Notes under the pieces: generated by a model
The model's input: the letters and a program-made list of their open reading frames with translations, nothing else
Told to the model about the DNA's origin: nothing
Databases searched by the model: none
Made by a program: the position numbers and the translations under genes
In this document: piece after piece, positions 56 through 38,414 of the stretch
Numbering within the stretch: the stretch's first letter is position 1
Layout: every line of letters starts with the position of its first letter
DNA from: a virus
UHGV virus genome: UHGV-1367765
Length of the DNA stretch: 50,578 nt
Strand: one strand, 5' to 3'

Positions 56-511
56 GTTATTATCGGTGCTGCAGGTAAAGGGGGGGGAGCCGGAAGAAAT
101 TCAGGTAGTGAAGGTGGCACAACTTATTTCGGTTCCCTGATAACTGCACCGGGTGGTACAGGCGGTGGCGCGGGGGGAGCATCTGCAAACACATCATATA
201 TTCAGGGTATTTCATGGGGTGCCAGTCCGACATCGTCCGGTACTGTACTAAGAGCATTTCGCTGTAGTGCAAAAACACCAGGTGCAATGGTTATCTCTGT
301 TAAAGCTGTTGCAGGTGGTACCGGGGGGGATACACCACTAGGTTCAGGCGGTATAGGTGGTGCAAGTTCTTCATCATTCAGCGGACGTGGTGGTGGTAAA
401 GCTGAGGGCTTTGGTGCTGGCGGAGGCGGAGCCTGCGCACCTGCCAGAAGTGAGGCTCAATCGGGAGGTGACGGTGCCCCGGGAATAGTTATTGTTGAGG
501 AGTATGCCTGA
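56..511 (+). pseudogene. IS1-truncated side tail fibre gene, Gly-rich C-terminal portion
   Basis: Frame open from the IS1 junction at 56 through the listed ORF 287..511; GxGG-rich repeats typical of lambdoid side tail fibres; no start codon, 5' part removed by IS1. Confidence 0.55.
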
Positions 512-777
512 TGAGTAATTTTGCTCTGATTGAACATGGCGTGGTGAAAAATATTATTATCTGGGATGGAGAGGGTGATTTATTCTCTAACTGCGAAATT
601 ATAAATATTGATCATATAGATGCAGGCGTCGGTTGGTTCTATTCTGACGGAGAGTTTATAGCGCCACCGGAACCGGAAATGACTGAATATGATGTTGGTA
701 ATATCGACGCGGTGATGGAATCAGATACCAGCACCGCGCCGGGGGTTATCTGGCCAGTTCCACCTGAGATGGTTTAA
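511..777 (+). CDS. tail fibre assembly protein (short Tfa-like)
   Basis: ATG overlaps the fibre stop (ATGA) with a GAGGAG RBS; C-terminus [10 protein letters not shown] resembles the Tfa at 14794..15396. Confidence 0.5.
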   Translation: MSNFALIEHGVVKNIIIWDGEGDLFSNCEIINIDHIDAGVGWFYSDGEFIAPPEPEMTEYDVGNIDAVMESDTSTAPGVIWPVPPEMV

Positions 778-943
778 TCTCAATCAGAATGGGTTCGCCC
801 TTCTCGTTAACAGATATTTCCATTCCTTCAGGGATTTCAGATGCAGTAAAAAACCAGTTATCTTCTGGTAATTCCACAGCCCCGGTCACGTCATGAAGAC
901 CGGGGATTACTTCAGTCAAAGTAACAGGATTAAACAGGCGCAC
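746..943 (-). CDS. putative tail fibre assembly chaperone of the opposite-strand fibre cassette (start uncertain)
   Basis: Lies directly after the minus-strand fibre stop at 930; GTG with GGAGAG RBS around 943; the listed ORF start at 1033 would overlap the fibre by about 100 nt. Confidence 0.3.
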
Positions 944-1852
944 AATAAACTCTCCAGGAAAAAGCACTTGTTGATGGTCTTCCGTCGTACATCTGGCAGC
1001 GGACATAAAAACCTGTATTACTGATCTGGTCATCCACGATCATTGAAACGTGAACGTTATTAGGTGTGGCCTCGTAATCTGTTCTTATTCTTTCCGCTAT
1101 GCTGATAAAACGTGAAAGCTTAGGTAGTGCAATTGGATAAACGACTTTAGCCAGCCCATTATCATTGGAACCACCAGTTCCAAATACTTCTATTGCACCA
1201 TCTGACCAGCGTATCCACGCACCATTGGCATTAGCTCCTCGCTGAATGACATATCTGGCTTCTCCCAAACCAAGGTTTTCGAGAGCTGTTTTCACCGTGC
1301 CATCCGATTTGATATCGCCAAACGGATTCTTGCGGCTTAACAGCAGCGCACGAAGCGCGGTAAGCAGCTGGTCGTGCCGCCCCTTCTCCAGGCTGGCACC
1401 GGATGCCTCCACCACGCTGCAAAGCTCCTCCTGCAACATGTCAAAGTAGTCATCATCCAGATCGGTGGCAGGCGTGCCGGTCTGGGGGTTACCACGGGTA
1501 AAACCGTTCTTACCCGCGCCGAACTTATCCTTCTGCGCGGTTTCCAGCCCAGCAGAGTCTTAAAGAGCATCTGCCGGACATCGTCCACCACATCATACGA
1601 AGCAAACTGACCGCGCTCATCACGCCCGTTACTCAGTATGACAACCACGGAGAAGCCCTCTTTCAGCTCCTGCCAGTAGTCGGTCTGGCTTTTGTTTTCT
1701 CCCGGAGAGTCATCACCCGGTACCACATACGCCGCCGGGAGTCTCAGCTTTCCGACCTCCGGCAGATTTTTGAACTGTGCCGCGCCTGCCACCCGGTTTT
1801 CAAAATACGGGCAGCGGGCACGCAGCGCAGCAATAACAGGCGTCAGTTTCAT
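930..1852 (-). pseudogene. tail fibre gene with an apparent frameshift near 1540-1560
   Basis: N-terminal frame (MKLTPVIAALRARCPYFENR...) runs into junk after LLGWKP; the fibre-like sequence with the conserved motif [24 protein letters not shown] continues in another frame to 930. Confidence 0.45.
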
Positions 1853-2355
1853 CTGTGTCGTCGCTCCGGCTTCAGTGATTTACGCAATTCCCGCGCCAGA
1901 AAATAGCGTGTCCAGCTGCGGTTCTTTTCAAGCGTTTCCACCATGAAGTTATTACGTGGAGCCAGTCGCCAGCCGCTGCCACCGGATGCACCACGATGAT
2001 GGCTGCGACGACGCTTTGCCCCTCGCCTCACGCCATAGAACAAAAAAGCCGGATAAAAATCACCGGTGATACGGCGGTTTCCCTCTCCATTACGCTGGTT
2101 AGGGGCTATACGTGCCATAAAACCAGGGCGATGTTTACTGGCTCTGGGTACCATGTAACCAATCGAACGAGCCAGGCGTCCGGTCTGATAACCGGGGTTT
2201 TCACCCGGTGCCGACCGCGCACGGCGCATCACCAGCCGACGGGCATCACGCATATGACGCTGACCAATCGTGACAAACGCCCGCCGGACACGGGCGCGGT
2301 TAAAGCGCATCTCCGCGGGCTGCTGAAAATCAACGTGCAAAAAGGAAGTCGTCAT
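1849..2355 (-). CDS. phage virion morphogenesis protein (Mu G / tail-completion S-like), likely a remnant
   Basis: Arg-rich protein with TGRLARSIGY-type motif resembling the Mu G family; family call from memory. Confidence 0.35.
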   Translation of the reverse strand: MTTSFLHVDFQQPAEMRFNRARVRRAFVTIGQRHMRDARRLVMRRARSAPGENPGYQTGRLARSIGYMVPRASKHRPGFMARIAPNQRNGEGNRRITGDFYPAFLFYGVRRGAKRRRSHHRGASGGSGWRLAPRNNFMVETLEKNRSWTRYFLARELRKSLKPERRHR

Positions 2356-2593
2356 TGTTGCCTCCGTGACTCTGCCTACATTCGCCCAGCTCCGTACACT
2401 CCAGCAGCAGAAAGCGCCGCGCCCCGTTCAGATCGCGCTGACGTTTCATCCGGTAACCGCGCTGATGACGGGATTGTCCTGGCTTGTATTGCTTCCAGCC
2501 TTCGCTTTTGTGGCTTTCACAATAGCCTGACGGGTCTGTGGTGGTATGGCGGCAGCCACGAACACGGCAGGCTTTTGGGATTCGTGATGGCAT
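2330..2593 (-). CDS. small Cys-rich (zinc-ribbon-like) protein
   Basis: Internal ATG (MPSRIPKACRVRGCRH...) preceded by GGAG; CxxxGC...C.SH pattern; function unknown. Confidence 0.3.
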   Translation of the reverse strand: MPSRIPKACRVRGCRHTTTDPSGYCESHKSEGWKQYKPGQSRHQRGYRMKRQRDLNGARRFLLLECTELGECRQSHGGNNDDFLFAR

Positions 2594-3118: not shown

Positions 3119-3412
3119 ATGAAAAAAATGTTGTTTTCTGCCGCTCTGGCAATGCTTATTACAGGATGTGCTCAACAGACGTTTACTGTTGGAAACAAAC
3201 CGACAGCAGTAACACCAAAGGAAACCATCACCCATCATTTCTTCGTTTCGGGAATTGGACAGGAGAAAACTGTTGATGCAGCCAAAATTTGTGGCGGCGC
3301 AGAAAATGTGGTTAAAACAGAAACCCAGCAAACATTCGTAAATGGATTGCTCGGTTTTATTACTTTAGGCATTTATACTCCGCTGGAAGCGCGGGTGTAT
3401 TGCTCACAATAA
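3119..3412 (+). CDS. bor: Bor outer-membrane lipoprotein (serum-resistance, lambda Bor / Iss family)
   Basis: MKKML...LITGCAQQTFTV lipobox; near-identical to lambda Bor as recalled; AGGA RBS; opposite strand to the lysis genes as in lambda. Confidence 0.9.
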   Translation: MKKMLFSAALAMLITGCAQQTFTVGNKPTAVTPKETITHHFFVSGIGQEKTVDAAKICGGAENVVKTETQQTFVNGLLGFITLGIYTPLEARVYCSQ

Positions 3413-3443: not shown

Positions 3444-3905
3444 CTATCTGCACTGCTCATTAATATACTTCTGGGTTCCTTCCAGTTGTTTTTGCATAGT
3501 GATCAGCCTCTCTCTGAGGGTGAAATAATCCCGTTCAGCGGTGTCTGCCAGTCGGGGGGAGGCTGCATTATCCACGCCGGAGGCGGTGGTGGCTTCACGC
3601 ACTGACTGACAGACTGCTTTGATGTGCAACCGACGACGACCAGCGGCAACATCATCACGCAGAGCATCATTTTCAGCTTTCGCATCAGCTAACTCCTTCG
3701 TGTATTTTGCATCGAGCGCAGCAACATCACGCTGACGCATCTGCATGTCAGTAATTGTCGAGTTCGCCAGCTTCAGTTCTCTGGCATTTTTGTCGCGCTG
3801 GGCTTTGTAGGTAATGGCGTTATCGCGGTAATGATTAACAGCCCATGACAAGCAAACGATGATGCAGATAACCAGAGCGGAAATAATCGCGGTTACTCTG
3901 CTCAT
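3444..3905 (-). CDS. Rz: i-spanin Rz
   Basis: N-terminus [26 protein letters not shown] matches lambda Rz; start overlaps the endolysin stop. Confidence 0.85.
3503..3685 (-). CDS. Rz1: o-spanin Rz1 lipoprotein embedded in Rz
   Basis: Out-of-frame ORF inside Rz with lipobox LVVVGC and a proline-rich segment, as in lambda Rz1. Confidence 0.8.
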
Positions 3906-4378
3906 ACCTCAATCTCTCTGACCGTTCCGCCTGCTTCTTTGAATTTTGCAATCAGGCTGTCAGCCTTATGCTCGAACTGACCATAACCAGCGCCCGGCAG
4001 TGAAGCCCAGATATTGCTGCAACGGTCAATTGCCTGACGAATATCACCGCGATCAATCATCGGTAAAGCGCCACGCTCCTTAATCTGCTGCAATGCCACA
4101 GCATCCTGGCTTTTCGGAGAGAAGTCTTTCAGAGCAAGCTGCTTACGGTAAGCATCCCACCAGCGTGAAAGAAGCTGATAACGTCCGGCGGCTGTTGATT
4201 TGAGTTTGGGGTTTAGCGTGACACGTTTGCGAGGGTGATCGGAGTAATCAGTGAACAGTTCACCACCAACAATAACATCATAACCGTGGTTACGTGTCGG
4301 TTGTCGCCCGTTATCCGTTCCTTCTGACCATGCCACCATATCCAGGAAAGCTTTACGCTGGGAATTTAGTGCCTGCAT
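3902..4378 (-). CDS. R: endolysin R (lambda-type lytic transglycosylase)
   Basis: 158 aa, near-identical over most of its length to lambda R ([19 protein letters not shown]...). Confidence 0.9.
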
Positions 4379-4784: not shown

Positions 4785-5837
4785 TTATTTCCCCACCAGT
4801 TCACTTACCTCTTTCACCGTCTGATTAAACCGCTCTGACTCAAGTTCAACACCTAACGCCCGACGCCCCAGCGCCATTGCTGCTTTTATTGTGGAACCGG
4901 ATCCCATAAAGAAATCAGCAACCAGATCACCAGGTCGACTACTGGCATTGATTATTTGCCGGAGCATATCCGCCGGTTTCTCGCACGGATGTTTACCCGG
5001 GTAGAACTGAACGGGCTTATGCGTCCAGACATCGGTATAAGGCACGGAGACTGATACGGAGAAATAGCGCCGGAGAGATTTAAACTCATCCAGCAATTCA
5101 GAATATTTGCGATTCAGTGAATCATAAGATGCCACCAGCTGGTGGTGTGGTTGTTCCAGTTGTTGTTCCTGAAACTTCTCTGCCGCTATACGGGAAAACA
5201 GTGCCTGTAACTTCCGATAGTCAGCCTCATTCGGCAACTGCCACTGACTGGCACCAAACCAGTGGGAAACCATATTTTTCTTACCTGTGGCTTCGGCAAT
5301 TTGTTTTGCCGTTATACCCAGTTCGGCACGAGCATCCCTGAAATACGATATCAGCGGTGCCATTATGTGCTGTTTGAGTTCCCTTTCTTTTGCCGCATAG
5401 CCGTCACTTTTGCCGCGATATGGCCCCTGGTAATGTTCAGCAAACAGAACGCGCTCTGTGGCAGGAAAATATGCGCGCAGACTTTCTTTATTACACCCAT
5501 TCCAACGTCCGGACGGCTTCGCCCAGATGATATGGTTAAGCACGTTGAAACGTTCACGCATCATGATCTCAATATCAGATGCCAGGCGATGCCCACAGAA
5601 CAGGTAAAGGCTTCCGGCAGGTTTTAACACCCGCCAGAACTGGGCCAGACAGTGGTCCAGCCACTTAAGGTAATCTTCGTCCCCTTTCCACTGATTGTCC
5701 CAGCCGTTGGGTTTCACCTTGAAGTACGGCGGATCGGTAACAATCAGGTCAATGGAATCATCAGGCAGGGACTGAATAAAATGCAGGCAATCAGCGTTGA
5801 TTAAATCAACACTGTTTATTTTTACAGTATTTTTCAT
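4785..5837 (-). CDS. DNA methyltransferase (N6-adenine/N4-cytosine class, DPPY motif)
   Basis: DLIVTDPPYF near the N-terminus and FFMGSGST near the C-terminus; no adjacent restriction enzyme. Confidence 0.8.
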   Translation of the reverse strand: MKNTVKINSVDLINADCLHFIQSLPDDSIDLIVTDPPYFKVKPNGWDNQWKGDEDYLKWLDHCLAQFWRVLKPAGSLYLFCGHRLASDIEIMMRERFNVLNHIIWAKPSGRWNGCNKESLRAYFPATERVLFAEHYQGPYRGKSDGYAAKERELKQHIMAPLISYFRDARAELGITAKQIAEATGKKNMVSHWFGASQWQLPNEADYRKLQALFSRIAAEKFQEQQLEQPHHQLVASYDSLNRKYSELLDEFKSLRRYFSVSVSVPYTDVWTHKPVQFYPGKHPCEKPADMLRQIINASSRPGDLVADFFMGSGSTIKAAMALGRRALGVELESERFNQTVKEVSELVGK

Positions 5838-6330: not shown

Positions 6331-6754
6331 AGCTGTGTGGCGAAGTAACCACTCTTAACAGCATAACCAATTTTTTACGTACGTAAACCTCTAAACAATA
6401 TTTGTGAGAATGATATCGAGTGTTCAAAACACCACCACAATCACATAAGGAAAAATAAACAAATAATCATTAAATAATTTCCGACGTTATTTTCAATGAG
6501 TTTAAATTAAAGAGATGATTTATAGAACACTTATTAATAACAACCTTTAATATAATTTAGCTACCAAATTTATTTTCTTTCAGAGAATAGTCATGTACAG
6601 CATGCAATAGAAAAAGTTCAGATAAAAATAGAGATCTAGATCACAATTTAAATAAGAATCTAAAACTTATATCTTGAATTAATCACATTGATTAGATGAA
6701 TATTTGTCGCGCAGGGCATCATTTTTTAATAAATGTTCAAAAAAAGGTCTCACG

Positions 6755-7852
6755 ATGAAAAAATTAACAGTGGCAATTTCTGCTGTAGCTGCATCAGTAC
6801 TGCTGGCGATGTCTGCTCAGGCAGCAGAGATTTATAATAAAGACAGTAACAAGCTGGATCTGTACGGAAAAGTTAATGCTAAGCACTACTTCTCCTCTAA
6901 CGAGGCAGATGATGGTGACACTACTTATGTTCGTCTGGGCTTCAAAGGCGAAACCCAAATCAACGATCAACTGACTGGTTTCGGTCAGTGGGAATACGAA
7001 TTCAAAGGCAACCGTGCTGAATCTCAGGGTTCTTCCAAAGATAAAACCCGTCTTGCCTTCGCTGGTCTGAAATTCGGTGACTACGGCTCCATCGATTATG
7101 GTCGTAACTACGGTGTAGCATACGACATCGGTGCGTGGACTGACGTACTGCCAGAATTCGGTGGTGATACCTGGACTCAAACCGACGTATTCATGACTCA
7201 GCGTGCAACTGGTGTTGCAACTTACCGTAATAACGACTTCTTTGGTCTGGTTGATGGCCTGAACTTTGCTGCTCAGTATCAGGGCAAAAATGACCGTAAC
7301 GATTTCGAGAACTACACCGAAGGTAACGGTGATGGCTTCGGTTTCTCTGCTACCTATGAATACGAAGGATTCGGCATTGGTGCGACCTATGCAAAATCTG
7401 ATCGTACCGACACTCAAGTCAATGCAGGGAAAGTTCTTCCTGAAGTATTTGCTTCCGGTAAAAATGCAGAAGTTTGGGCTGCAGGTCTGAAATATGACGC
7501 TAACAACATTTACCTGGCCACTACCTATTCTGAAACCCAGAATATGACGGTGTTTGCTGATCACTTCATTGCTAATAAAGCACAGAACTTCGAAGCTGTT
7601 GCACAATATCAGTTCGATTTCGGTCTGCGTCCGTCCGTTGCTTACCTGCATTCTAAAGGAAAAGACTTGGGTGTTTGGGGTGATCAGGACCTGGTTGAAT
7701 ATGTTGATGTAGGTGCAACTTATTACTTCAACAAAAACATGTCTACTTTCGTTGATTACAAAATCAACCTGCTTGACAAAAATGACTTCACTAAAGCACT
7801 CGGTGTAAGCACTGACAACATCGTTGCTGTAGGATTGGTTTACCAGTTCTAA
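6755..7852 (+). CDS. nmpC: outer-membrane porin, NmpC/Lc (OmpC/OmpF/PhoE family), apparently intact
   Basis: 365 aa with signal peptide [23 protein letters not shown] and porin motifs; near-identical to E. coli NmpC as recalled; sits between Q and the lysis genes on the opposite strand, as in DLP12. Confidence 0.9.
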
Positions 7853-12848: not shown

Positions 12849-13198
12849 TGGAGCCATACAGCCTCACACTCGATGAGGCCTGTCATTTTCTTAAGATATC
12901 CAGACCGACTGCCATTAACTGGATACGCACAGGGCGTCTTCAGGCAACACGCAAAGATCCCACTAAGAATAAATCTCCTTACCTCACAACACGACAAGCC
13001 TGCATTGCGGCTCTTCAGTCTCCGCTGCATACTGTCCAGGTGAGCGCGGGTGATGGCATAACAGAGGAAAGAAAATGTCACTCTTCCGCAGAGGTGAAAT
13101 ATGGTACGCCAGTTTCACATTGCCGAACGGTAAAAGATTTAAACAGTCTCTTGGAACAAAGGACAAAAGGCAGGCGACAGAACTCCATGACAAGCTAA
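12848..13198 (+). CDS. xis: excisionase-like DNA-binding protein
   Basis: HTH-like N-terminus ([26 protein letters not shown]); immediately upstream of and overlapping int. Confidence 0.5.
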
Positions 13199-14238
13199 AG
13201 GCTGAAGCATGGCGGGTCAGCAAACTTGGTGAAATACCTGATATAACGTTCGAGGAAGCGTGTGTCAGGTGGCTTGAAGAGAAAGCACATAAAAAATCAC
13301 TGGACGATGACAAAAGCCGGATCGGATTCTGGCTTCAACATTTCGCAGGAATGCAACTAAGAGACATTACTGAATCAAAAATTTATTCAGCAATGCAGAA
13401 AATGACGAACCGGCGTCATGAGGAAAACTGGAAACTCAGGGCAGAAGCATGCAGAAAAAAAGGGAAACCTGTTCCAGAATACACGCCAAAACCAGCGTCC
13501 GTTGCAACGAAGGCTACGCATCTTTCATTTATAAAGGCCCTACTAAGAGCCGCAGAGCGTGAATGGAAAATGCTGGATAAGGCACCAATTATTAAAGTGC
13601 CTCAACCAAAGAATAAACGGATCCGCTGGCTGGAGCCCCATGAAGCACAAAGGCTGATTGATGAATGTCCGGAGCCATTAAAGTCTGTTGTTGAATTTGC
13701 ACTGGCAACAGGCTTAAGACGCTCGAACATCATCAACCTTGAATGGCAACAAATAGACATGCAGCGCCGGGTGGCATGGATAAACCCGGAAGAGAGTAAA
13801 TCAAACCGCGCAATTGGCGTTGCGCTGAATGATACTGCATGTCGCGTTTTGAAAAAACAAATCGGGAATCATCACCGTTGGGTATTTGTGTACAAGGAAA
13901 GCTGTACCAAACCAGACGGAACGAAAGCGCCAACAGTAAGGAAGATGCGGTATGACGCAAACACAGCCTGGAAAGCGGCGCTGAGACGGGCTGGTATTGA
14001 TGATTTCAGATTTCACGACTTGAGACACACCTGGGCAAGTTGGCTGGTTCAAGCCGGAGTCCCGTTGTCAGTGTTACAGGAAATGGGAGGCTGGGAGTCT
14101 ATCGAAATGGTTCGTCGATATGCTCACCTTGCACCTAATCACCTTACCGAACACGCACGGCAAATAGACTCGATCCTGAACCCATCGGTCCCAAATTTGT
14201 CCCAGTCAAAAAATAAGGAAGGTACTAATGATGTGTAA
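13075..14238 (+). CDS. int: tyrosine integrase (lambdoid Int family)
   Basis: 387 aa with the R..HxxR..Y catalytic pattern ([10 protein letters not shown]...VRRYAH); very similar to E. coli lambdoid prophage integrases as recalled; 3' end faces the att core. Confidence 0.9.
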
Positions 14239-14252
14239 CTTATTGATTTAAA

Positions 14253-14298
14253 TGGTGCCGATAATAGGAGTCGAACCTACGACCTTCGCATTACGAAT
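14253..14298 (-). other. att core: 46-nt copy of the 3' end of tRNA-Thr (thrW-type), not a complete tRNA
   Basis: Minus strand reads ...ATTCGTAATGCGAAGGTCGTAGGTTCGACTCCTATTATCGGCACCA; similarity to the tRNA stops upstream of this; 14 bp after the int stop. Confidence 0.7.
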
Positions 14299-14494: not shown

Positions 14495-14793
14495 CGCCTC
14501 AGTTTTGTCTAAGCGTTCTACTGAAAACATAGTAAAATCGGTAACTGCTGGAAATCATTCACTACTCGCACTATCGAAAGTTCGCCAGCCAGCCGCAGCA
14601 CGTTCTTGCATACGGCGTGTCTGCGGTTTCATTCATCTCCGACCGGAAACTTCTTATACAAAGTCGATACGCCAACATCATAGATGATCACCACCTTCTG
14701 GCGAGAAACTCCTGATGCAATATAATTTGTGGCTGGATTATCTGGACGCACTGGAACTGGTTGATACCTCCAGTGCTCCAGATATTGAATGGC

Positions 14794-15396
14794 CTACGCC
14801 TCCAGCAGTTCAGGCCAGATGACATCCGGCGCGGTGCTGGTATCTGTTGCCGTCACCGCGTCAATGTAATCCAGCACGGCGTTAAGTCGGGTTGTTTCTG
14901 CCTGCGTCAACTTCCGTCCGGCCTGTAATTTCAGCTGAATCAGACTAATGGAAGCCATTGCTGCATCAATCAGTGACTGGCGCTGTGCTTCTGCCGCTTC
15001 TACTGCGGCGCTATGCTGTGCCTCGGTATCCGTCACCCATTTCTCGCCATCCCATTGATCATATGGCGTGGATGGTGCTGCGGTGGTTGTTCCTTCCGGG
15101 TATTCTCCCAACTGTGAAACTTTCACAGGATTGCCAGTGGTGGTGCTGTAAACCGTTTCGCCGCGATGGTCTGGCACATATTCCCATGATTTTAAATCCA
15201 CAGAGCGGCAAATTGTATAACCATCCTTATATGCACCAGGGGCGTCTAAACAGGAATGCGCAGGGATACCGACACCAATGGCAAGATATTCATTTGAAGA
15301 GGAAATATATTCCCGAGTTTCACCATCATAGTTATAAACAGTAATATCCCCTGCCTTCGTAGCAATAAACTCGCTATTTAATACAGCGTTATCCAT
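14794..15396 (-). CDS. tail fibre assembly protein (Tfa)
   Basis: 200 aa, C-terminus ...DTSTAPDVIWPELLEA typical of TfaE/TfaQ-type chaperones; directly after the tail fibre gene. Confidence 0.7.
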   Translation of the reverse strand: MDNAVLNSEFIATKAGDITVYNYDGETREYISSSNEYLAIGVGIPAHSCLDAPGAYKDGYTICRSVDLKSWEYVPDHRGETVYSTTTGNPVKVSQLGEYPEGTTTAAPSTPYDQWDGEKWVTDTEAQHSAAVEAAEAQRQSLIDAAMASISLIQLKLQAGRKLTQAETTRLNAVLDYIDAVTATDTSTAPDVIWPELLEA

Positions 15397-16229
15397 TATG
15401 CAGCCCTCACAATGTAGTTAAATGCAACGTTCACCGGGCGAGTTTCATTGGCGGTATTTGCCACCCTTGACATATCGAAATCAAATGTTGTGACACCATC
15501 CCCTCCACCAGTGCCTGTAACCGCTGTTAATCCAGTAGTCAGAAAGTTATTACCGTTATTACGAAATGGACCACTGACAACTAAGTCATTAAAAAGCTGA
15601 ATTTTCCCTATTGAACCAGTGACGTTTTGCATTGCATGCTCCTGTGAAGCCAATAGAATCCTTCCTGGGTCAATGCCTCTCCCGTCATCCCAGCCACGAA
15701 TAAACTCACCGCGTAAATCAGGCAATTTATTTGTCGGGTAAGCCTTTGCCAGTTCCGGATACTCTTCGGCAGAAAAAGGCGCACCATTGCATTTCAGCCA
15801 GCCTGTTGGCGGAGTGGCTAAAGGCCACGGAACGGGCGCACCAACAGGTAATGCAGAACCTTCTCCCAAACCAAGGTTTTCGAGAGCCGTTTTCACCGTG
15901 CCATCCGATTTGATATCACCAAACGGATTCTTGCGGCTCAGGTATTCAACAGCAAACCCCGATCCCAGCAATTCAACAAAACCGGGCAGATCACCATTAT
16001 CAAGCACATCCCGTTGCGTTTTATCACTTACAAACTGGGCCAGAGCTGCAGCAATAAAGCTGGCCTGTCGAATAACCTTATTGACTTGCGCACTGGATGC
16101 TTTCCCTGCTGTAAATCCGGATAAAAGCGCAGGCAACGCTTCCCATTCCTCCTGCGACATAACATTGGCATTCCGATCAGTTGCAAACGCTTTAAAGTCA
16201 TTTTTCGCCATCAGAGTAATACTCCCCAT
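15396..16229 (-). CDS. tail fibre protein
   Basis: Contains the conserved [24 protein letters not shown] segment shared with the prophage A fibre; follows the baseplate genes. Confidence 0.65.
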
Positions 16230-36798: not shown

Positions 36799-37236
36799 TT
36801 ATTTCAGGCATTGCGTCCTGATGTATTCCTGCAGGTAGTTAACCTGCGCGGTTATCTTGTCGATTCCACTTCGTAGACGGTAATAATTGAGTTCAGCATC
36901 TGCTGTAAGTCTTGGGCTTTCTCCATCGCCCATGCTGCTGGCTCCGGTCGTTGACTTTGCACAGGTGGCGGCGACTTGCATGCGCTTACGACCAGCAGAA
37001 ACATCAGCACGGAGACTTTCGATAGTCGAGTTAGCATCAGCAAGCTCCTTTGTGTATCTGGCGTCAAGTTCTGCTACGTCACGTTGACGCTTCTGCATAT
37101 CAGCGATGATGGATGTGGCTTTGTCGCGCTGGGCTTTGTAGGCGATGGCGTTATCCCGGTAATGATTAACAGCCCATGACAGGCAAACGATGATGCAGAT
37201 AACCAGAGCGGAGATAATCGCGGTGACTCTGCTCAT
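36799..37236 (-). CDS. Rz: i-spanin Rz
   Basis: N-terminus identical to the prophage A Rz and lambda Rz. Confidence 0.85.
36852..37037 (-). CDS. Rz1: o-spanin Rz1 lipoprotein embedded in Rz (start taken at internal ATG)
   Basis: Out-of-frame ORF with lipobox LLVVSAC and a Pro-rich stretch. Confidence 0.65.
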
Positions 37237-37709
37237 ACCTCAATCTCTCTGACCGTTCCGCCAGCCTCTTTGAATTTTGCAATCAGGCTGTCAGCCTTAT
37301 GCTCGAACTGGCCATAACCAGCGCCCGGCAGTGAAGCCCAGATATTGCTGCAACGGTCGATTGCCTGACGAATATCACCGCGGTCAATCATCGGTAAAGC
37401 GCCACGCTCTTTAATCTGTTGCAGTGCCACAGCGTCCTGGCTTTTCGGAGAGAAGTCTTTCAGGCCAAGCTGCTTGCGGTAGGCATCCCACCAACGGGAA
37501 AGAAGCTGGTAGCGTCCGGCGGCTGTTGATTTGAGTTTCGGATTTAGCGTGACAAGTTTGCGAGGGTGATCGGAGTAATCAGTGAATAGCTCTCCGCCTA
37601 CAATGACGTCATAACCATGATTTCTGGTTTTCTGACGTCCGTTATCAGTTCCCTCTGACCACGCCAGCATATCGAGGAACGCCTTACGTTGATTATTGAT
37701 TTCCACCAT
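37233..37709 (-). CDS. R: endolysin R (lambda-type lytic transglycosylase)
   Basis: [35 protein letters not shown]... essentially identical to lambda R as recalled. Confidence 0.9.
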
Positions 37710-38258: not shown

Positions 38259-38334
38259 TGGTGCTGGTTAACGGACTTGAACCGCTACCCATTCGCTTAC
38301 AAGGCGACCGCTCTACCATTGGAGCTAAACCAGC
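38259..38334 (-). tRNA. tRNA-Thr (anticodon UGU inferred)
   Basis: Hand-folded cloverleaf: 7-bp acceptor stem, D-stem GCTC/GAGC, anticodon loop CTTGTAA, T-loop TTCAAGT, 3' ACCA. Confidence 0.55.
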
Positions 38335-38339
38335 ATGTT

Positions 38340-38414
38340 TGGCGGGACAGCGTGGACTCGAACCACGATAAGAAGGTTAACAGCCTTCCGTAATGACCTT
38401 TATACGACTGACCC
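38340..38414 (-). tRNA. tRNA-like gene, anticodon GUU (Asn) inferred; possibly degenerate
   Basis: Cloverleaf with anticodon loop CTGTTAA, T-arm CGTGG-TTCGAGT-CCACG, 3' GCCA, but a U-U mismatch in the acceptor stem and a 3-bp D-stem. Confidence 0.4.

Follow-up and report, generated by a model that had tools for sequence, protein, structure and literature searches.

A probable deletion scar behind an apparent fibre frameshift, beside an IS1-broken Pin-type switch in a gutted prophage

DNA inversion systems of the Gin, Cin and Hin class rely on a serine invertase to turn round the DNA that lies between two inverted sites of 26 bp; in the Gin and Cin systems a constant fibre N-terminus is thereby joined to alternative C-termini, each with its own downstream accessory genes. 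A Fis-dependent recombinational enhancer is required in cis and normally lies in the 5′ part of the invertase gene. In the e14 cryptic prophage of E. coli K-12, inversion of the P segment by PinE and PinQ has been shown experimentally (PMC4272514, PMC12529663), and the e14 product StfE2 is reported to serve the host as a receptor-masking anti-phage protein (PMC12529663). Fibre switches of cryptic prophages have recently been reported to be active in anti-phage defence (PMC12529663), so there is some use in cataloguing which sites their remnants have kept and which they have lost. Here we describe a fibre locus at one end of the UHGV virus genome UHGV-1367765, a stretch of 50,578 nucleotides that is referred to below as the window. 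Its closest known system is e14, yet unlike e14 it lacks, within the window, the second site and the invertase gene that an invertible segment needs, and its fibre gene is fused out of frame to a gene for a different tail protein.

A fusion of tail-terminator and fibre genes

The minus-strand part of the locus, from the fusion outwards, contains the following features.

1337–1852, minus strand: chimeric ORF of 171 aa, with about 104 tail-terminator codons followed by 67 out-of-frame codons across the fibre gene and a stop at 1337
1541–1544: deletion junction 1, placed by three-way alignment, blastn end points and the SfII map
1542–1852, minus strand: 5′ part (about 105 codons) of a tail-terminator gene, orthologue of SfII_11 (full length 186 aa; PF23840)
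1849–2355, minus strand: intact tail-completion (Neck1) gene, orthologue of SfII_10 (phrog_879 over its full length, E = 5e-94; 99% to SfII)
2330–2455, minus strand: 3′ 126 nt of a head-closure gene, orthologue of SfII_09 (phrog_25; matches to SfII and to locus L008, from the prophage of E. coli Res13-Sevr-PER07-33, stop at 2455)
2454–2593, minus strand: start of an HNH endonuclease gene, with about 46 codons in 139 nt (88.5% to L008 3528–3666; phrog_144, E = 1.5e-12)

An earlier note on this DNA, made from the sequence alone, had described 930–1852 as a single tail-fibre gene that changes frame near 1540–1560. Frame analysis does find a change at that place, and it now maps to 1541–1544: the 171-aa ORF at 1337–1852 occupies one frame, the region from 930 to about 1562 is open in a different one, and the two long minus-strand open frames overlap at 1337–1562. 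The description as a frameshifted fibre gene does not survive, since what lies upstream belongs to a tail-terminator gene (PF23840, E = 1e-19; 99.2% DNA identity to SfII) and two different genes are fused. The terminator fragment matches the Phage_tail_terminator profile (PF23840) over positions 8–121 of 150 with E = 1.1e-19 and 71.2 bits against a cut-off of 27, and is 97% identical to residues 1–106 of SfII_11; its orthologue is named “phage tail terminator protein” in RefSeq. SfII and the prophage of E. coli Res13-Sevr-PER07-33 (hereafter the Res13 prophage) both have this orthologue between the tail-completion gene and the DUF2635 and sheath genes, and the window copy, itself a member of PF23840, is truncated after about codon 105. 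On the other side, the frame 930–1543 matches tail-fibre PHROGs from profile positions 7–24 onward (phrog_1396, E = 2e-51) and is 98.5% identical to residues 7–210 of the 210-aa fibre of the Res13 prophage.

The three-way alignment resolves the fusion to the nucleotide: the window tracks the fibre gene up to 1543 and the terminator gene from 1542, and a 2-bp TT microhomology at 1542–1543 is all that the two flanks share. The blastn matches end accordingly, covering 55–1543 for the fibre locus of the Res13 prophage and 1543–2455 for L008. The ATG of the Res13 fibre gene lies 19 nt past the junction, and the window copy of the constant fibre part is devoid of these first 19 nt (start codon and six codons) as well as of a ribosome-binding site. 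Both flanks are present in the Res13 prophage at 98.2–98.7% identity and 9,592 bp apart; the interval between the same two flanks in SfII is 9,587 bp. In either genome 13 genes lie between them, and the 9.6-kb interval comprises DUF2635, sheath, tube, tail-assembly, tape-measure, DNA-circularization and baseplate genes and ymfQ. Because the two flanks lie 9,592 bp apart in one intact prophage, we conclude that an illegitimate deletion of about 9.6 kb produced the frame change by joining the tail terminator out of frame to the fibre. Re-sequencing of 1500–1600, which the earlier note had proposed as a check, would on this account restore no frame.

Two overlapping minus-strand open frames do look like a frameshift as long as homology is left aside, and could then be read as one continuous fibre gene over 930–1852 whose frame was shifted near 1540–1560, either by mutation or by an error in sequencing. 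The homology data render that reading extremely improbable: the upstream part is a PF23840 terminator, 99% to SfII gene 11, the fibre homology begins at fibre codon 7, and no indel reconciles the flanks, which do not correspond to contiguous parts of one gene and stand 9.6 kb and 13 genes apart in SfII and the Res13 prophage. Programmed translational frameshifts are established for the tail assembly chaperones G/GT, and tail operons thus do offer a precedent for two frames merging into one protein; here, however, the frames encode unrelated proteins, for which intact relatives have two distinct genes 9.6 kb from each other, and the junction occurs in none of the 5,426 complete E. coli genomes searched, which leaves such a mechanism a negligible probability. 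The window derives from a short-read metagenome contig (ENA ERZ27294074, k119_28834) and prophage repeats are abundant, both of which speak for a chimera made during assembly, but the 2 bp shared at the junction are far too short for a misjoin in a k = 119 graph. Moreover, the identical 171-aa chimeric protein is encoded on five public contigs from two assembly pipelines, among them the source contig, whose end falls within IS1, and a Logan contig of 2.6 kb, the independently built Logan assembly of SRR12174406 being among the sources. Given the 2-bp overlap and the recurrence in two pipelines, we reject an assembly artefact as very improbable. Exact-pattern scans of genome and metagenome contigs recovered neither the deletion junction nor the IS1 junction described below.

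The sequence upstream of the junction points to further loss. Window positions 1538–2455 are 99.2% identical to positions 6491–7408 of Shigella phage SfII (98–99% across SfII, SfI and SfV); they span the tail-completion gene in full, flanked by the 3′ end of the head-closure gene and the 5′ part of the terminator gene. At 2454/2455 a second deletion junction fuses the 5′ part of the HNH endonuclease gene to the 3′ fragment of the head-closure gene, and 6,701 bp are absent here relative to the Res13 prophage, namely the 3′ part of the HNH gene, both terminase subunits, ymfR, the portal, protease, capsid and connector genes and the 5′ part of the head-closure gene. The tail-completion gene is the sole intact gene left in this late-module remnant. 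Region 1–2600 is what remains of the late (virion) module, now gutted, of an SfV/SfII/e14-type prophage whose early and lysis region is lambdoid. Sequence comparison shows that two illegitimate deletions and one IS1 insertion left about 2.5 kb of some 20 kb of head, tail and fibre genes, the deletion at 1541–1544 taking the 3′ part of the terminator through ymfQ and joining terminator codon ~105 out of frame to fibre nt 20. The same prophage remnant carries cargo genes for a Bor lipoprotein, an N6/N4 DNA methyltransferase (PF01555) and an NmpC-like porin (PF00267) at 3119–3412, 4785–5837 and 6704–7852.

The fibre gene, its cassettes and the intact segment in relatives

Downstream of the junction, the fibre gene and the two cassettes that converge on each other are arranged as follows.

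1286–1543, minus strand: constant N-terminal part of an stfP-like fibre (97–98% DNA identity to SfII gene 23, e14 stfP and the Res13 fibre)
1260–1285: crossover site (pix) of the Pin type, 26 bp, TTCTCCCAAACCAAGGTTTTCGAGAG, with the same sequence as the one in e14 stfP
930–1259, minus strand: variable C-terminal (receptor-binding) part of the stfP-like fibre, inside the invertible segment (98.5% to the Res13 fibre)
746–943, minus strand: 65-aa ORF with a GTG start, downstream of the cassette in expressed orientation (phrog_5400, unknown function, E = 3e-22)
511–777, plus strand: 88-aa ORF in the fibre-chaperone position (phrog_14370, unknown function)
56–511, plus strand: alternative (silent) glycine-rich fibre C-terminal cassette, 5′-truncated (phrog_6202, E = 3e-26)
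1–55: terminal 55 nt of IS1 (insB end and terminal inverted repeat; 100% to IS1 ends)

The first ~95 residues of the fibre are 97–98% identical to e14 StfP and SfII gp23, and this homology ends at the crossover site. A search for crossover repeats, suggested in the earlier note, identified the 26-bp site at 1260–1285; it is identical both to the stfP-internal site of e14 (L006 4779–4804) and to the right arm of the inverted repeat in the Res13 prophage, and the chance expectation for the crossover-site pattern is 0.00. The e14 repeats as published, CCTTCTCCCAAACCAA (PMC12529663), agree with the window site at 15 of 16 positions. The invertase-proximal sites of the Res13 prophage, of the P2-like prophage UC4315 and of e14 are TTCTCCCAAACCAAC-type variants with five mismatches from the window site. 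Further inside the fibre frame, an in-frame ATG at 1439 heads a 169-aa fibre fragment, which could in principle still be made.

The plus-strand cassette had been described as a fibre C-terminus followed by a Tfa gene, converging on the minus-strand cassette and cut by IS1. Its convergence stands, with 56–511 and 511–777 facing the minus-strand fibre, and so does its fibre part. The glycine-rich frame at 56–511 is open, has no start codon and is 96.7% identical to residues 77–229 of the glycine-rich ORF in the Res13 prophage; its full-length relative matches PF21722 (Gly_rich_2), and together with the phrog_6202 match this marks the cassette as related to tail fibres. The Tfa label is not borne out: neither small ORF (511–777 or 746–943) has a Pfam or NCBIfam match at E ≤ 0.01, PF02413 (Caudo_TAP) included. 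The C-terminal 22 aa of the 88-aa ORF are nevertheless 73% identical to the C-terminus of TfaE (E = 1.4e-4), and the RefSeq name of its orthologue is “phage tail protein”; from position and C-terminal motif, a chaperone role for the 88-aa ORF is plausible. The 65-aa ORF overlaps it tail to tail and has an orthologue, WP_001236016.1, annotated in the Res13 prophage, in UC4315 and in a further reference locus, L007.

At 55/56 the cassette is cut by an IS1 end. The source contig terminates within IS1, and its 104-nt IS1 stretch, 55 nt of which lie inside the window, is 100% identical to the ends of IS1A/IS1B transposase genes on more than 5000 plasmids; across E. coli genomes, the median number of places that match it is 10. 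The IS1/fibre junction itself was not found in any complete E. coli genome. Relative to its relatives, the window copy of the glycine-rich cassette is short of 234 nt at its 5′ side and of the invertase-proximal crossover site.

The intact form of the segment is preserved elsewhere. Window positions 56–1543 are 98.2% identical to the intact Res13 prophage. Both in this prophage, which has a Mu-type tail, and in the P2-type prophage UC4315, the segment lies between inverted repeats of about 26–33 nt whose arms are 1415 nt apart; one of them is inside the fibre gene and the other directly beside the gene for a recombinase of 183–188 aa. The recombinase of the relatives combines a Resolvase with an HTH_7 domain and shares 87% identity with e14 PinE, and such a serine invertase gene stands beside the segment in the Res13 prophage, UC4315 and L007 alike. 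When inversion of the Res13 segment was simulated, the constant 87 residues joined the glycine-rich C-terminus in frame, giving a 327-aa ORF. The flipped arrangement occurs in nature: three complete E. coli genomes are collinear with it at 98% identity, beside pinE, and five carry the unflipped orientation seen in the window. The layout in ECE228, for example, runs ymfQ, stfP-constant::glycine-rich, 88-aa ORF, the other cassette inverted, and pinE.

In the intact relatives, then, the invertase flips about 1.47 kb between the fibre-internal site and its inverted partner, so that the 87-residue N-terminus is joined in frame either to a 123-residue C-terminus, the state frozen in the window, or to a 240-residue glycine-rich C-terminus, each cassette being trailed by its own small ORF. 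Judged from these relatives, the segment is a genuine, naturally flipping member of the e14 P/Mu G kind. The proposal in the earlier note that the locus is the remnant of an invertible host-range segment of that kind is accordingly well founded, the 98% identical relatives having the full segment, the flipped state occurring in nature and the site left in the window being that of e14 stfP.

State of the switch and a second one nearby

In the window, the constant part (1286–1543) lies outside the former segment and the convergent cassettes at 930–1259 (minus strand) and 56–511 (plus strand) lie inside it, one of them truncated. A tblastn search with PinE and two of the relatives' recombinases found no invertase gene in the window, the sole match being a 34-codon pin 3′ fragment at 14632–14733; the absence of a pin/gin gene asserted earlier thus holds, for the window only, as the contig ends inside IS1. 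No inverted partner of 1260–1285 is present in the 50,578 bp at up to six mismatches, although the partners in relatives differ by five, and the fibre-internal site is the only crossover site left for this segment. IS1 either removed the partner site, 234 nt of the cassette and pin, or displaced them past the contig end; were it a simple insertion, pin and the partner site would follow at a distance of about 0.8 kb.

Another switch of the Pin type, also decayed, occupies 14593–16229 in the neighbouring prophage and has these parts:

15396–16229, minus strand: second fibre gene, in the “stfP-constant::stfE” state relative to K-12 e14
15861–15886: identical 26-bp crossover site, in direct orientation with respect to 1260–1285 (sequence identity)
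14794–15396, minus strand: TfaE-like gene (PF02413, E = 2e-30)
14703–14819, plus strand: tfaP 3′ fragment, joined directly to the pin 3′ fragment
14632–14733, minus strand: pin 3′ fragment, codons 151–184 (tblastn)

The partner site of this second switch (14593–16229) was not found. The two fibre genes have in common a 79-bp direct repeat of 97.5% identity (1259–1337 and 15859–15937), which includes the crossover sites, 14.6 kb apart, and through which the entire first prophage remnant could be lost by homologous or site-specific recombination. One Logan contig for this locus stops at window position 1253, just beyond the 79-bp repeat, which fits a graph branch arising from either the repeat or inversion. 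Between the two switches, an IntD (DLP12)-like integrase gene at 13075–14238 (plus strand) is followed by what appears by eye to be a tRNA 3′ half on the minus strand (~14250–14296), where ARAGORN finds no complete tRNA; integrase and tRNA half together suggest an att junction between two tandem prophages. Each prophage has a phage lysozyme gene, at 3902–4378 and 37233–37709, the two being nearly identical and encoding 158 aa each, and the second prophage carries tRNA-Thr(TGT) and tRNA-Asn(GTT) genes on the minus strand (38259–38414) near its lysis/late-regulation region. All 50.5 kb of the window look like prophage DNA.

Whether anything of the first switch still works depends on what lies beyond the window and on its neighbours. 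The window ends inside IS1, the kept site is a perfect copy of the proven e14 site, and Pin enzymes work in trans across prophages (PMC12529663), so that the segment might still be physically invertible, with pin and the partner site just beyond IS1 or with Pin supplied by another prophage. We regard this as unlikely, if worth keeping in mind: partner sites number zero within 50.5 kb, the only pin sequence in the window is the 34-codon fragment, and with a fibre short of start codon and operon, an interrupted alternative cassette and the virion genes gone, no functional fibre would result. A more far-reaching reading has the remnant active, either through the 169-aa fragment from the ATG at 1439 or through recombination by Pin in trans, yielding a chimeric fibre fragment used by the host, for instance to mask a receptor against phages in the way reported for StfE2 of e14 (PMC12529663). 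Pin's substrates may be the direct sites at 1260–1285 and 15861–15886, or a partner beyond IS1. Invertases of the Pin family, however, disfavour recombination between direct repeats, and the gene is without expression signals; for these reasons we consider an active remnant highly unlikely.

The fibre has no start codon, ribosome-binding site or upstream operon and the virion genes are gone, from which we infer, with some force, that the switch can no longer serve host-range variation and that the locus is a frozen, non-coding remnant. The earlier impression of a decayed switch is in line with the one remaining site, the cassette cut by IS1 and the lost fibre start. As a whole, a deletion-scar fusion in a gutted prophage beside an IS1-broken Pin-type switch is very probably the right explanation of the locus.

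The main value of this result lies in what it corrects: where a prophage gene seems to be frameshifted, a deletion may have fused unrelated genes, and annotation of this locus as a “frameshifted fibre pseudogene” would be wrong. As for the defence role reported for other cryptic-prophage switches, the window copy has lost what such a role would need.

Comparison with known systems

With the Mu G and P1 C segments (Gin/Cin) and Salmonella Hin, the locus has in common the mechanism class and the layout, the latter as shown in its relatives; it differs in that its cassettes are different, DNA homology is undetectable and the window copy is defective. Phages SfII, SfI and SfV, which combine an HK97-like head with a Mu-like contractile tail, are far closer in sequence: their head-closure, tail-completion and terminator genes are 98–99% identical to those of the window, and the constant part of SfII gene 23 is 97.6% identical to the window fibre, including the 26-bp site. 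Yet these are complete phages with a single fibre and Tfa and with neither invertible segment nor invertase, whereas the window is without 16.3 kb of their morphogenesis genes.

The P2-like prophage UC4315 has both cassettes and both small ORFs at 98.6% identity over 55–1284, with an adjacent recombinase and inverted repeats, but its constant part is a 463-aa P2 H-type fibre. At the crossover site the homology to UC4315 breaks off, evidence that the cassettes and the neighbouring recombinase have been exchanged between unrelated tail types, in the classical manner of fibre modules; one cassette and invertase module is common to Mu-type-tail and P2-type prophages at 98–99% identity.

The e14 P segment (stfP-tfaP / tfaE-stfE′, pinE) resembles the locus most. 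The constant fibre N-terminus has 97% DNA identity over 1259–1543, the 26-bp fibre-internal crossover site is identical, and the layout of ymfQ, constant fibre, two convergent cassettes and pin is the same, the invertase of the window's relatives being 87% identical to PinE. In e14, too, an SfV-like late module has been gutted by internal deletions, which left a chimeric ymfN and a beeE portal fragment beside a jayE baseplate fragment, but the deletion end points differ from those in the window. The tips also differ, with StfP/TfaP and StfE/TfaE in e14 as against a 123-aa tip of unknown family and a glycine-rich PF21722 tip in the window, where each cassette comes with a small non-PF02413 ORF. 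Finally, e14 has retained its two sites along with pinE and remains able to invert (PMC4272514, PMC12529663), whereas in the window IS1 has removed or displaced one site, a portion of one cassette and pin, and the start of the fibre gene is gone. The locus is a product of ordinary prophage decay, a known kind of system in defective form with nothing outside known biology, and it provides a second, independent case of e14-style decay in which the morphogenesis module was deleted and the fibre and switch end was kept.
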